Positions 40,335-42,114 of a DNA stretch of 64,000 bases are shown here, one piece after another (the first letter of the stretch is position 1; each line of letters starts with the position of its first letter). A program made the position numbers and the translations under genes. Below the pieces are notes generated by a model that saw only the letters and a list, made by a program, of their open reading frames with translations, searched no databases and was not told the DNA's origin. The stretch comes from an uncultured Clostridium sp. (lineage in GTDB: Bacteria; Bacillota; Clostridia; TANB77; CAG-508). The stretch covers positions 758-64,757 of the forward strand of contig CAMMVE010000002.1 of assembly GCA_946500265.1 (NCBI GenBank), in the 5' to 3' direction.

Positions 40335-40553
40335 TTATAATATTTCAATATTTTTTACTTCATTCTCAAATAATGAGTATGTTTTATTATCTTTTGCGTT
40401 TTGAATGCTTATTTCTTCAATTTCTGGTTCGTTATCTTGTGCTGGTACATATCCTACAACTGTTCCTTCATATTCATTACCATTAAATGTAGTTAATTTG
40501 ATTTTTTTATTTAATAATTCCTCTAAATTTTTCCCTTTCATTTTAGTTGCCAC
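40335..40553 (-). CDS. small protein immediately after the MuF-toxin fusion (candidate immunity protein)
   Basis: 72 aa. Its start overlaps the upstream stop region by 11 nt. No recognised motif. Confidence 0.45.
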   Translation of the reverse strand: MATKMKGKNLEELLNKKIKLTTFNGNEYEGTVVGYVPAQDNEPEIEEISIQNAKDNKTYSLFENEVKNIEIL

Positions 40554-42114
40554 CTTTCCTGTAAGGAACTATATGTGTTCCAGTTTTGCTATAATGTATT
40601 TTGAAACTATTAGTTTCTATTTCTTCATTTTTATTTTTTACTATTCCTATTGGATTATCTACTGTTATTATTTCTTTTTTATTCCATTTGCCACTGTCAC
40701 TAAATTCTAATGTTCCTTTTCCAGCATATTGGTTAATTAACTCTTGTGCTTTTTCTTTGGATATTGTCAAATAGCTTCTTCCTTTTGTATAATTATTACT
40801 TCCTTTTATATGCTTATCTTGTTTTCCCTGATTTATTAGTTTATTGACATTACTAATATATGTTTTTGCTCTTTCTTCTGTTGTAATACCTAAGGCATCA
40901 GAATATTGTGCTTTTAGATTTTTCCATTCGTCTATATTATTATACTTCATTTCTTGAAATTTATCAAATGTTTTAGGCACTTCATCTCCTAATGTTTCTT
41001 TATATCTATTATATTGTGCATAGTCAGAAGATTTATTTTTGTTCATCTTTATATCCGTTTCAAATGCTTTTTTTGTTGTTGGATCTGAATACACATATTT
41101 TTCTAACCACTCATTATATGTAATATTTCTTGGTATATAATAAGTTTTGCCATCTGTGTTTCTTGCTGCACGTTCGCCAAATTCGAATTCATCTTCAAAA
41201 TATGGAGCTGTTGTTGTTCTACATCTAATATGATATGGTGGAGCCGTAACCCCTATTTTATAATCTTTCATATCAAATATAGTTCCGTCTATTTCTCTAC
41301 ATTCTTCGGATGTCTTTGAATCTAATGTTGCTATATTTATATATTTTTGTACCCATAGTTCTTCAAAACATCTTTTTCTTGAATCACTTGCAAAAAAGGC
41401 TGATTCTGTCATTACTAATCTTCCTACTTTACCTTTGGCCACATCAAAATCTTTTGAAATTTTATCTATTACTTCATCTGCATCTCCTCTTAATGCTTTT
41501 TCTAAATCTTTCTGTAAAGTATCTATTAATGCTTTCTTATTTTTCCAAATTCTATCTGAGAATGTCTGTTCATCACTTGTCCATGGTTTTGATATTATTT
41601 TTTGAATTGTATCAATATTCAGTGCTGCAAATTTAAAAGCTACATTTGAACCTTTTTGTAACTCATATGCTGTTTTATAATAAGTTTCTCTATACGACTC
41701 AATGATAAAATCATTTGTAGTTTGTTGTTCATTGTAATATAGTTTTTCAATTTGTTGTTGTATTTGTATTTCTAGTGCTTCTAACCTTGAAATATGGACC
41801 CTTGCGCTTGCATTTTCTAATTGTTTTTTCCAAATTAAGTCTATGCCATTTTCTTGGCCATATTTTATATATTCTTCTATACTCCACTTTAATTCTTTTA
41901 GTTCTTGAGTATTCAACCACTTTTTAGCTTCATTGATACTAATTTGATTATTTACAGCAAATCTCACTAACCAATTATTTATTTCTTTCTTTACTTCACT
42001 TAGTGTTTTCTCATAAACTTCTTGTAATTCTGTAATATATTTAGATTCATTCAGTATTTGTGCTTTTTCAAGTTCTTCAAATCTTTTTATCCAATACTCT
42101 GCATTATTACTCAT
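40543..42114 (-). CDS. MuF/SPP1-gp7-type minor head protein fused to a C-terminal toxin-like domain
   Basis: MuF core ...ATLDSKTSEECREIDGTIFDMKDYKIGVTAPPYHIRCRTTTAPYF. The extra ~130 aa C-terminal module has QGKQDKHIKGSNNYTKGRSYL...AQELINQYAGKGTLEF...IHYSKTGTHIVPYRKGG. Confidence 0.65.
   Translation of the reverse strand: MSNNAEYWIKRFEELEKAQILNESKYITELQEVYEKTLSEVKKEINNWLVRFAVNNQISINEAKKWLNTQELKELKWSIEEYIKYGQENGIDLIWKKQLENASARVHISRLEALEIQIQQQIEKLYYNEQQTTNDFIIESYRETYYKTAYELQKGSNVAFKFAALNIDTIQKIISKPWTSDEQTFSDRIWKNKKALIDTLQKDLEKALRGDADEVIDKISKDFDVAKGKVGRLVMTESAFFASDSRKRCFEELWVQKYINIATLDSKTSEECREIDGTIFDMKDYKIGVTAPPYHIRCRTTTAPYFEDEFEFGERAARNTDGKTYYIPRNITYNEWLEKYVYSDPTTKKAFETDIKMNKNKSSDYAQYNRYKETLGDEVPKTFDKFQEMKYNNIDEWKNLKAQYSDALGITTEERAKTYISNVNKLINQGKQDKHIKGSNNYTKGRSYLTISKEKAQELINQYAGKGTLEFSDSGKWNKKEIITVDNPIGIVKNKNEEIETNSFKIHYSKTGTHIVPYRKGGN

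Follow-up and report, generated by a model that had tools for sequence, protein, structure and literature searches.

The window, that is, the whole stretch of 64,000 nucleotides of DNA analysed here, consists of a myovirus-like phage beside about 19 kb without phage-family matches. In its head and packaging module, TerS and TerL lie upstream of a portal-MuF gene pair, with the scaffold and major head genes downstream. The genes and protein regions at the centre of the locus are the following.

42114..43667 (-): portal protein gene, SPP1 Gp6-like (Pfam SPP1_portal, E 4.7e-62; ORF list)
40543..42114 (-): gene for a putative MuF-Ntox50 polymorphic toxin of 523 aa (ORF; Pfam Phage_Mu_F and Ntox50)
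41095..42114 (-): MuF core, approximately residues 1-340 (binned identity and alignment; Pfam MuF domain)
40873..41094 (-): pre-toxin linker, approximately residues 341-414 (alignment of 11 MuF proteins)
40564..40836 (-): Ntox50 (BECR-fold RNase) toxin domain, residues 427-517 (Pfam, E 1.9e-33)
39458..40066 (-): scaffolding protein gene (Pfam Phage_scaffold, E 1.9e-20)

According to the ORF list, the last base of the portal gene is the start of the MuF gene (42114). The large terminase of the window (43680-45130) is read in three frames, so the prophage is possibly unable to package, unless these frames represent assembly errors. Relatives are found on bacterial contigs of up to 1.4 Mb. The window yielded no recognisable integrase or repressor; neither its left 19 kb nor the lone plus-strand ORF near 54.5 kb, when annotated with PHROG and Pfam, was of use for locating a lysogeny module. 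A near-identity search of isolated phages returned no DNA-level match to positions 39400-43700.

An earlier note on this DNA, made from the letters alone, had read a MuF/SPP1-gp7 core in the 523 aa protein, which does contain the peptides quoted there; two profiles bear the core out above their cut-offs: Phage_Mu_F (PF04233) at residues 202-302, with 41.9 bits against 29.6, and TIGR01641 (phageSPP1_gp7), with 73.6 bits against 39.65 (E 1.5e-20). In alignment, the core is common to all relatives, including short MuF proteins of 342 aa that carry no extension. Beyond the core, proteins that are 56-69% identical over it carry HExxH-type modules, an unnamed module, or no extension at all, and one relative, L025, has an orphan Ntox50 fragment together with the immunity gene. 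The linker, with the conserved motif S.D..QY..YK..LG...P.SFDKFQEMKYNN...W..LK, is common to MuF proteins with Ntox50 and to those with a different C-terminal module. Its FDKFQEMKYNN-type motif occurs in 26 of 50 full-length carriers and is located, in the alignment of 11 MuF proteins, exactly where the conserved part meets the variable part. The locus shows the following marks of a MuF polymorphic toxin: a MuF domain, a post-portal position, a toxin C-terminus, a small (<150 aa) downstream ORF, and polymorphism.

The C-terminus had been described as a distinct, toxin-like module, tentatively likened to the "toxin type 50" kind. The Pfam profile search finds a full-length Ntox50 domain there (PF15542, profile positions 1-92 of 92), and its score of 115.5 bits against a cut-off of 22.2 shows this comparison to have been right. 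The toxin sequence also matches solved toxins in the PDB, namely 9v8i_B (YxiD-CT, 3e-7) and 8hhj_B (MafB2, 1.9e-6). An AF2 model of the domain (pLDDT 92.6) matched only these two structures in Foldseek, with TM scores of 0.73 and 0.67, respectively, and superposes on 9v8i_B with an rmsd of 2.0 A and 36% identity in the structural alignment. By profile, sequence and predicted fold, then, the region is Ntox50 and not a structural head domain.

The catalytic residues are intact. K434, H435, H507, K510 and H514 align with YxiD K446, H447, H521, K524 and H528; mutation of any one of these YxiD residues destroys both tRNase activity and toxicity (PMC12700104). The conserved Ntox50 residues H, S, K, T, H, K and HxVP (Zhang 2012, PMC3482391) are kept as H435, S447, T501, H507, K510 and H514-I-V-P517, plus K434, in a domain that is basic overall (+10). 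Metal-dependent tRNase activity has been shown among Ntox50 domains only for YxiD-CT (PMC12700104), and by analogy the window's domain most likely cleaves tRNA as YxiD-CT does. Full-length contexts in which Ntox50 is joined to LXG were reached only indirectly, via orphan modules, because both homologue searches with the toxin domain as query returned short proteins alone.

The downstream gene and its linkage to Ntox50

Immediately beyond the toxin gene lie a candidate immunity gene and its presumptive ribosome-binding signal.

40550..40560 (-): Shine-Dalgarno-like AGGAAAGGTGG for the small gene (read from the sequence, inside the last MuF codons)
40335..40541 (-): candidate immunity gene, 68 aa (homologue starts, invariant Met, Ntox50 linkage)

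The earlier note had placed here a 72 aa ORF overlapping the 3' end of the MuF gene. Such an ORF does exist (40335..40553, minus strand, in the ORF list), but its start is probably the fifth codon. Met5 of the 72 aa reading is the start in nearly all of 127 homologues, with the Met itself invariant, and AGGAAAGGTGG stands 8 nt upstream of the corresponding ATG at 40541; on these grounds the small gene is most likely one of 68 aa (40335..40541) rather than 72 aa. The ATG lies 1 nt past the TAA stop of the MuF gene, and the 11-nt overlap probably arose only from choosing the first possible start codon, a GTG.

A predicted model of the small protein (pLDDT 84.7) has a helix at 10-13 and strands at 17-22, 27-37, 44-52, 58-62 and 66-71. 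Between beta2 and beta3, model and alignment together place an invariant acidic A.DN.PE motif (A38.D40N41.P43E44; residues 34-40 of the 68 aa protein). The best fold matches by Foldseek are Sm, LSm, Hfq and Gemin6 proteins, so that the protein is predicted to have an Sm-like fold. The family is acidic, with a mean net charge of -7, and corresponds to phrog_1865, annotated "function unknown"; the family profile recognises phiC2p05 (E 1.3e-31) and AP45 gp47, and a tblastn search of isolated phages with the 68 aa protein found no match at 1e-3. In sequence, the resemblance to Sm proteins is faint. The Pfam LSM model gives the small protein 15.0 bits, below its cut-off of 23.4; weak LSM or SM-ATX matches come from just 5 of 41 family members, with all LSM scores under the family threshold; and sequence and profile searches of the PDB returned Sm/LSm matches below threshold only. 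Comparison with YxxD, the immunity protein paired with YxiD, gave an hhalign probability below 1% for 9v8i_A, which the family profile also misses in the PDB. An hmmsearch E value of 0.009 against YxxD comes from a database of five sequences and is not significant, and YxxD is not among the top 50 Foldseek matches of the model. The family is uncurated, and its likeness to YxxD is one of fold only, without detectable sequence homology.

Linkage to the toxin domain is strict from either direction of search. With the small protein as query, all 32 viral loci found have the small gene immediately downstream of an Ntox50 ORF or of a fragment of one; with Ntox50 as query, it follows the toxin domain in 77 of 79 assessable genomic loci. 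The linkage is independent of the toxin carrier, since standalone Ntox50 genes are also followed by the small gene, and one chromosomal array holds seven pairs of Ntox50 and small ORF without phage context. Conversely, in 10 related MuF loci with another C-terminus or none, the small gene is absent from nine, and in the tenth (L025) it stands behind an Ntox50 remnant. By these counts the small ORF is not conserved independently of the toxin module, and the toxin-immunity layout that the earlier note expected of a MuF polymorphic toxin is found across loci, the small gene adjoining Ntox50. Divergence of the small protein tracks that of the toxin domain (Spearman 0.47, Mantel p 0.001, partial 0.42) and does not track that of the carrier (partial 0.09), although genes that are linked diverge together even when their products do not interact. 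The toxin domain and the immunity gene together are a cassette that moves between different carrier proteins.

Signals in the gap and in the linker

Between the small gene and the scaffold gene, the earlier note had seen a non-coding gap of 268 bp. The length is right (268 nt, 40067..40334), but the gap is not empty, and only part of it belongs to the cassette.

40255..40284 (-): terminator-like hairpin 1 with U-run (fold -9.7 kcal/mol, z -3.4; gap alignment)
40160..40196 (-): terminator-like hairpin 2 with U-run (fold -13.8 kcal/mol, z -4.4; alignment)
40067..40159 (-): conserved leader upstream of the scaffold gene (alignment; backbone, not cassette)
40939..40967 (-): candidate sigma-70/sigma-A-type promoter, TTGATA-17-TATAAT, within the FDKFQEMKYN codons of the linker

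Hairpin 1 lies about 50 nt past the stop of the small gene and is found in the window's close relatives. Hairpin 2 is a feature of the phage backbone: its position is kept in all relatives, including toxin-less ones, and its stems vary in sequence yet pair. Both hairpins are AT-rich and were missed by a consensus terminator scan; reading of the sequence brought them out, and folding confirmed them. The conserved leader folds no better than shuffled sequence (z -0.35), and an Rfam search of the gap gave no credible match. T-arm-like sequences seen in the MuF-scaffold gap of relatives suggested tRNA genes or remnants, of which ARAGORN found none.

Within the linker, TTGATA-17-TATAAT is the best promoter-like match in the region (11/12), with a predicted start site near 40932, roughly 390 nt upstream of the start of the immunity gene. 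It is the top or tied-top promoter match in 15 of 20 genes. We consider it quite possible, and put it forward tentatively, that the FDKFQEMKYNN linker doubles as a sigma-A-type promoter, making the cassette a self-contained "moron" composed of a promoter within a head-protein gene, a leader that spans toxin-coding sequence without being translated, the gene for the Sm-like immunity protein, and a terminator. In a lysogen, the immunity protein would then be made constitutively, and the toxin only alongside the late head genes; the promoter element would accompany every new toxin cassette that recombines at the linker. An internal translation start at the Met of FQEMKYN was also considered and rejected, as no Shine-Dalgarno sequence stands before it and 5 of 26 sequences have ATA, ATC or GTT at this codon.

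The competing account, that the conserved DNA under FDKFQEMKYNN is a crossover point for cassette exchange, or reflects peptide and codon bias only and no promoter, is one we take seriously while thinking it probably wrong. The motif sits exactly at the conserved/variable boundary and is common to MuF proteins with different toxin modules, as an exchange point would be. AT-rich codons for F-D-K and K-Y-N yield TTGATA and TATAAT almost automatically, the site being partly forced by the peptide motif and these codons, and a conserved G at -13 lies outside the classical promoter consensus and is not accounted for by the promoter model. At synonymous sites, however, the -10 hexamer is conserved, and invariant even in genes of 40-52% GC (9 of 9 against 3.8 expected, P 2e-4), while the 17-nt spacer is free to vary (TTT/TTC 17:9, CAA/CAG 15:11); the Lys codon adjoining the -10 likewise runs against the genes' own usage, in 18 of 20 against 6.5 expected. 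A recombination core, for its part, ought to be conserved throughout. The promoter-like site in the linker is under constraint at the DNA level.

Proposed function and rival purposes

The locus is very probably a polymorphic toxin-immunity module of the MuF family, within the operon for head morphogenesis of a myovirus-type prophage whose host is a low-GC gut Bacillota bacterium. In the mechanism we propose, the MuF core (residues 1 to about 340) would be the head and portal-associated part, joined by the conserved linker to an exchangeable C-terminal Ntox50 that would act as a BECR-fold RNase, and the 68 aa acidic Sm-like protein would be translated immediately after the toxin. SPP1 gp7 offers an analogy for delivery: the capsid may take up a few copies of the MuF toxin, which would pass into the next cell along with the DNA and damage cells without the immunity protein. 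Our search of the literature found no demonstration that a MuF toxin is packaged or injected, SPP1 gp7, without a toxin domain, being the only one characterised in this respect. The small protein most likely neutralises the Ntox50 toxin, its acidic beta2-beta3 loop most likely binding the basic active-site face and denying access to the substrate; the mechanism is argued by analogy, since similarity to YxxD is not significant and YxxD falls outside the top 50 structural matches. With the promoter-like sequence in the linker and the terminators beyond the small gene, a lysogen would be able to produce the immunity protein by itself.

The same parts might instead serve the phage, the injected RNase shutting off host translation at infection or attacking co-infecting or resident phages rather than acting in bacterial competition, and the small protein only protecting the producing cell until assembly is done. 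Ntox50 does sit on a protein that should accompany the DNA into the cell, and some 50 isolated-phage records carry the domain; a purely lytic-cycle role, however, would not require the immunity gene to have a promoter-like site of its own and terminators, nor would it require chromosomal Ntox50-immunity arrays without phage context, and cassette polymorphism with orphan modules is a hallmark of competition systems. We regard a phage-serving purpose as unlikely, though by no means negligible. Phage-serving and bacterial-competition roles are compatible with each other.

Two further readings concern the small gene and its expression. An addiction module of toxin-antitoxin type, stabilising the prophage, would express toxin domain and antidote both from the internal promoter, much as internal promoters in Salmonella rhs genes drive a truncated toxin plus the immunity protein (PMC7043789), and the conserved promoter-like site does lie upstream of the toxin-coding part. 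Past the predicted start, however, the sole ATG ORF of at least 20 aa in any frame is the 68 aa gene itself, and the only in-frame NTG of the toxin frame is TTG449, which lies beyond K434 and H435, so that its product would be without part of the active site; such a module is improbable here. Lower still is the likelihood that the small ORF encodes an Sm/Hfq-like RNA-binding regulator or a phage assembly chaperone instead of an immunity protein. The predicted fold, with its Sm, LSm, Hfq and Gemin6 matches, and weak Pfam matches to LSM, SM-ATX and Gemin6 are what such a protein would show, but close relatives with the same head genes and no Ntox50 lack the gene; it occurs beside standalone Ntox50 genes outside phages, encodes a product whose strong acidity is ill-suited to RNA binding, and scores under the Pfam LSM threshold in every case.

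Should the linker promoter prove true, it would account both for immunity of the lysogen without late-gene expression and for a peptide linker conserved across otherwise unrelated toxin cassettes. MuF toxins are thought common in gut prophages, and few have been studied experimentally; those found in the literature are an ADP-ribosyltransferase and (p)ppApp synthetases, with no RNase type among them. The window locus and its approximately 110 relatives represent a well-defined MuF toxin of the Ntox50 tRNase type together with a small partner of 68 aa. The family to which this partner belongs is everywhere annotated "hypothetical" and has no curated profile; naming it would improve the annotation of phages and gut bacteria, and its 68 aa member offers a second, much smaller predicted Sm-like inhibitor to compare with YxxD.

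Comparison with known systems

Fusions of MuF with Ntox50 are already published (Zhang 2012, Jamet 2017, phage phiC2). The defining layout of MuF toxins is a MuF gene that immediately follows the portal gene and precedes the scaffold gene (Jamet 2017, PMC5576092), and the window is like the polymorphic toxins so described (PMC5576092; PMC3482391) in its N-terminal MuF, its post-portal gene position, its toxin C-terminus and the small ORF next to it. These surveys name no immunity family for Ntox50, and describe neither the linker motif nor the orphan modules (PMC5576092; PMC3482391). Clostridioides phage phiC2 has the same gene order: portal, MuF-Ntox50 (annotated "head maturation protease"), a 66 aa hypothetical protein, and scaffold. 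Its phiC2p05 belongs to the window's small-protein family (E 1.3e-31), whereas the two Ntox50 domains are only about 60% identical. The window's MuF protein is longer (523 aa against 465 aa) because of the conserved linker with the promoter-like motif, which is absent in phiC2.

A characterised pair close to the window's is YxiD-YxxD of Bacillus subtilis 6633 (PDB 9V8I; PMC12700104). The toxin domains are homologous (36% identity, TM 0.73), all five functionally tested YxiD residues are conserved in the window, and the immunity gene likewise lies directly downstream of the toxin. YxxD is acidic and Sm-like with an acidic beta2-beta3 loop, through which it blocks YxiD-CT (PMC12700104), and the window's small protein is likewise acidic, with a predicted Sm-like fold and an acidic loop at that place. 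The carriers differ, an LXG/T7SS domain in YxiD and a phage head protein here, and YxxD has 110 aa against 68 aa, without significant sequence or profile similarity. In MafB2-CT/MafI2 of Neisseria meningitidis (PDB 8HHJ), the Ntox50 RNase is again homologous (E 1.9e-6, TM 0.67) and is carried by secreted MafB rather than MuF; MafI2, however, neutralises its toxin with two alpha-helices, by a different fold and mode (PMC12700104).

An internal promoter of the proposed kind has parallels in other toxin systems. In nuclease colicin operons, the immunity gene has its own promoter inside the toxin gene. Salmonella rhs genes similarly contain internal promoters upstream of the immunity gene (PMC7043789). 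The predicted promoter in the window would resemble both in that, by its position within toxin coding sequence, it would uncouple expression of immunity from that of the toxin. The window differs from both in that the predicted promoter is embedded in the linker of a phage structural gene, a conserved stretch that codes for peptide, and from rhs in that no truncated toxin is translatable from the predicted internal transcript. A promoter-like signal so placed inside the toxin gene may be new.

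The MuF carrier and its toxin domain

The 523 aa protein lies in a minus-strand cluster of phage genes with the following features.

Features of the MuF-Ntox50 locus
42114..43667, minus: portal gene, ending at the start of the 523 aa ORF
40543..42114, minus: MuF-Ntox50 gene, an ORF of 523 aa with Pfam matches to Phage_Mu_F and Ntox50
40335..40553, minus: 72 aa ORF as first listed
40335..40541, minus: small gene, most likely 68 aa (homologue starts, invariant Met, upstream AGGAAAGGTGG)
40067..40334, minus: gap of 268 nt between the small ORF and the scaffold gene
39458..40066, minus: scaffold gene, downstream of the gap

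Pfam places Phage_Mu_F at residues 202-302 of the 523 aa protein and a complete Ntox50 domain (PF15542) at residues 427-517, with a score of 115.5 bits against a threshold of 22.2; the NCBIfam match is phageSPP1_gp7. These matches bear out the earlier note's description of a MuF/SPP1-gp7 protein with a distinct C-terminal module, and also its tentative likening of that module to "toxin type 50". In a sequence search of PDB, the last 135 residues match YxiD-CT from Bacillus subtilis 6633 (9v8i_B, E 3e-7) and MafB2-CT from Neisseria meningitidis (8hhj_B, E 1.9e-6). AlphaFold models residues 415-523 with very high confidence (pLDDT 92.6), and among all PDB chains the model matches these two structures only, YxiD-CT with TM 0.73 and rmsd 2.0 A and MafB2-CT with TM 0.67; the next E-value is 0.14. 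By profile, sequence and predicted fold, the region is Ntox50 and not a structural head domain. YxiD-CT is a metal-dependent tRNase that loses activity and toxicity on mutation of H447, H521, H528, K446 or K524 (PMC12700104). All five essential residues recur unchanged in our alignments, namely as K434, H435, H507, K510 and H514, the last within the sequence HIVP, and the domain is basic, with a net charge of +10. Together, the Pfam and PDB matches, the confident model and the retained active-site residues make it very probable that the domain acts as an RNase of the Ntox50 clade, with activity and target as predictions.

The window's phage is myovirus-like, encoding a sheath, tape measure, tail fibre, amidase lysin, TerS, methyltransferases and a RecT-like protein. 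The closest relative is a contig from an uncultured Bacilli MAG, with 98% identity across the toxin domain; further relatives come from MAGs of gut Clostridia and Bacilli, frequently on long contigs of bacterial DNA. The phage region adjoins some 19 kb free of phage-family matches; all ORFs at 1-19900 are on the minus strand and lack Pfam or PHROG matches, except an MFS transporter (1324..2595). This left 19 kb is probably host DNA flanking a prophage end near the lysin gene (20396..21406), with no attachment site identified at 1-19900 and no integrase or repressor recognised in the window. The large terminase (43682-45127, minus) is broken into three ORFs. The intact 475 aa TerL of L028, a related locus, aligns over residues 2-475 at 92-94% identity in frames -3, -1, -2 and -3, with A-rich homopolymer runs visible around the junctions in the stretches displayed, and several relatives also have TerL in two ORFs. 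The frame changes reflect either an assembly error or a very recent inactivation; genuine frame changes would leave this copy unable to package the toxin. A tail-fibre-directed diversity-generating retroelement occupies 23386-24486 and 24356-26194 (minus). Its repeat of about 113 nt has a variable copy at the 3' end of the tail-fibre ORF (24366-24478) and an intergenic template copy (24105-24217), and wherever the two copies differ the template has an adenine. Adjoining the template is a reverse-transcriptase fragment (ORF 23386..23973, phrog_1423), which, because it is only 195 aa long, may be frameshifted like the terminase.

A small-protein family linked to Ntox50

The ORF reported downstream as 72 aa and overlapping the MuF gene is present, although its length and overlap probably do not hold. 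In nearly all of 127 homologues the start corresponds to its fifth codon, an invariant Met, and AGGAAAGGTGG lies 8 nt upstream of that ATG; the gene is therefore most likely 68 aa (40335..40541), starting 1 nt past the MuF stop codon. The 11-nt overlap probably arose only because the ORF was called from its earliest possible start, a GTG. The protein has no curated family, with just a sub-threshold LSM match in Pfam, and PHROGs assigns it to phrog_1865, "unknown function". Its model (pLDDT 84.7) has a short helix followed by five strands, and every one of its top structural matches is an Sm, LSm, Hfq or Gemin6 protein (TM 0.6-0.69). The family, comprising 113 representative clusters at 50% identity, is acidic (mean net charge -7), and its invariant residues A38, D40, N41, P43, E44, E46 and E47 (72 aa numbering) are predicted to lie in or just past the beta2-beta3 loop.

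Searches from both partners returned the same pairing. With the small protein as query, the gene directly follows an Ntox50-ending ORF or fragment in 32 of 32 viral contigs with a relative, the upstream Ntox50 being a fragment in one. With a broad Ntox50 alignment as query, a family member lies directly downstream in 77 of 79 assessable bacterial loci. The carrier is MuF in 45 of the bacterial loci by local profile and Phage_min_cap2, the "MuF2" of Jamet's scheme (PMC5576092), in 17 of 20 further loci tested; some Ntox50 domains have no carrier at all. Standalone Ntox50 genes adjoining secA or a terminase gene likewise have a family member next downstream, and all seven tandem Ntox50 genes of one chromosomal array are so paired. 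Arrays of this kind (L076, 297-4832; also L077 and L145; all Bacillota MAG contigs) hold five to seven pairs, each a standalone Ntox50 gene of 113-115 aa with a family member of 90-91 aa, plus one extra family member lacking an Ntox50 partner. They are flanked by a NusG_II-domain gene on one side and Hpre_diP_synt_I, ApbE and Rnf genes on the other, with no carrier or secretion domain visible.

The reverse comparison covered ten loci that combine a MuF core related to that of the window with a different C-terminus: three carry HExxH-type modules, one a weakly M90-like module and three an unnamed module, and the other three are short MuFs without extension. Nine of the ten lack the small gene, which is thus not kept independently of the toxin module. 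The sole exception, L025, has it behind a 36-residue Ntox50 remnant. In this locus (IMGVR_UViG_3300006217_002058, 2192-4229), a MuF with an unnamed module ending ...NQKTGNLIQTNP has its own 66 aa partner. That pair is followed by the C-terminal remnant and then by an intact gene homologous to the 68 aa one, an arrangement that looks like a classical displaced orphan module of toxin and immunity. The unnamed module recurs in L063, L072 and L025 as the last ~130 MuF residues (conserved ...H[FS]IDR..G... NP.TGNLIQ.NP), has no Pfam match and always precedes a 65-66 aa ORF starting MI(K/I)I.D.QK.IL.KY; the two are probably another toxin-immunity pair without a curated family.

In pairwise comparisons, small-protein divergence tracks that of Ntox50 (Spearman 0.47, Mantel p 0.001, partial correlation 0.42) and not that of the carrier (partial 0.09). 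This co-divergence is supporting, not decisive, because physical linkage alone would give some. For the MuF locus of C. difficile and the min_cap2 locus of Eubacterium multiforme, identity is 16% between the carriers, 61% between the toxins and 83% between the small proteins. Sequence comparison thus suggests that toxin and immunity gene move between carriers as one cassette.

A candidate promoter in the linker

MuF relatives align in three parts: a core reaching to about residue 340, which is also the end of the short MuFs; a linker at about 341-414; and a variable domain. The linker motif S.D..QY..YK..LG...P.SFDKFQEMKYNN...W..LK is common to MuFs with Ntox50 and with a different module. Among sigma-70-type matches in the region, TTGATA-17-TATAAT at 40967..40939 (minus) scores best and falls exactly on the FDKFQEMKYN codons. 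AAG TAT AAT underlies K-Y-N in 23 of 26 motif carriers, from genes of 24-52% GC, and TTG lies 17 nt upstream in 23 of the 26, while spacer synonymous sites vary freely. AAG encodes the Lys in 18 of 20 dereplicated sequences, compared with 6.5 expected from own-gene usage (P <5e-6 by simulation), and all 9 genes with a GC content of 40% or more have TAT AAT (3.8 expected, P 2e-4). In 15 of 20 cases no other position in the whole gene scores higher as a promoter than this site; a conserved G at -13 falls outside the classical promoter consensus. DNA conservation here appears to exceed a by-product of the peptide and points to a candidate internal promoter. Past its predicted start (~40932), the 68 aa gene is the sole ATG ORF of at least 20 aa, and the only in-frame NTG of the toxin frame comes after K434 and H435.

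The gap was correctly given as 268 nt; it holds two hairpins with U-runs and a conserved scaffold leader. The first hairpin, about 50 nt past the small-gene stop (z -3.4), is present in the window's close relatives. The second (40160-40196, z -4.4), about 60 nt beyond, is kept with the leader in toxin-less relatives too and therefore belongs to the phage backbone. Its equivalents in six related loci (L061, L062, L071, L063, L088 and L026) have different, still pairing stems at the same position, about 100 nt upstream of the scaffold gene, with a U-run and then one of two alternative conserved leaders; this region may serve as a regulated entry point for expressing the scaffold and capsid genes. 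Promoter, small gene and terminator have the predicted layout of a phage "moron", which would let a lysogen make immunity protein without late genes. Nuclease colicins have an immunity gene with an internal promoter. Internal immunity promoters are also known in principle from Salmonella rhs (PMC7043789); we found no literature report of one for MuF toxins.

Relation to known systems

The MuF-Ntox50 fusion was already known: Zhang et al. 2012 list it, name phage phiC2 and give no immunity family for Ntox50 (PMC3482391), and Jamet et al. 2017 established MuF toxins as a family, listed Ntox50 as one of the domains and noted that small ORFs lacking any known domain lie downstream (PMC5576092). 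Phage phiC2 has the window's gene order, with a 66 aa partner that is a clear member of the small-protein family; RefSeq labels its fusion (NC_009231.1, 3459-5071) "head maturation protease" and the partner "hypothetical protein", as it does the partner in AP45 (NC_048651.1, 31075-32625). About 50 isolated-phage records have Ntox50 at the end of the minor head protein, and none of those listed annotates the toxin domain or the immunity candidate. We found no demonstration in the literature of injection of any MuF toxin. New here are the evidence for cassette mobility, the candidate linker promoter and the recognition of the small proteins as an uncurated, Ntox50-specific, putatively Sm-like candidate immunity family.

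The closest studied system is YxiD-YxxD, in which YxxD, an acidic Sm-like protein, inserts its acidic beta2-beta3 loop in the basic Ntox50 active site, forming a 1:1 complex (9 nM) that blocks tRNA access (PMC12700104). YxxD, whose sequence was reached via a Priestia LXG island that contains an orphan Ntox50 module, does not significantly resemble the 68 aa family (hhalign probability <1%), the sole aligned stretch being helix, beta1 and beta2, in register; the small protein is therefore kept outside the YxxD family and classed, by analogy, as one that would work like YxxD. Both pairs have a homologous toxin, the same gene order and complementary charges, and the small protein's predicted fold and loop position are as in YxxD. 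Neutralisation would most likely proceed as in YxiD-YxxD, with the acidic beta2-beta3 loop occupying the basic active site and blocking the substrate.
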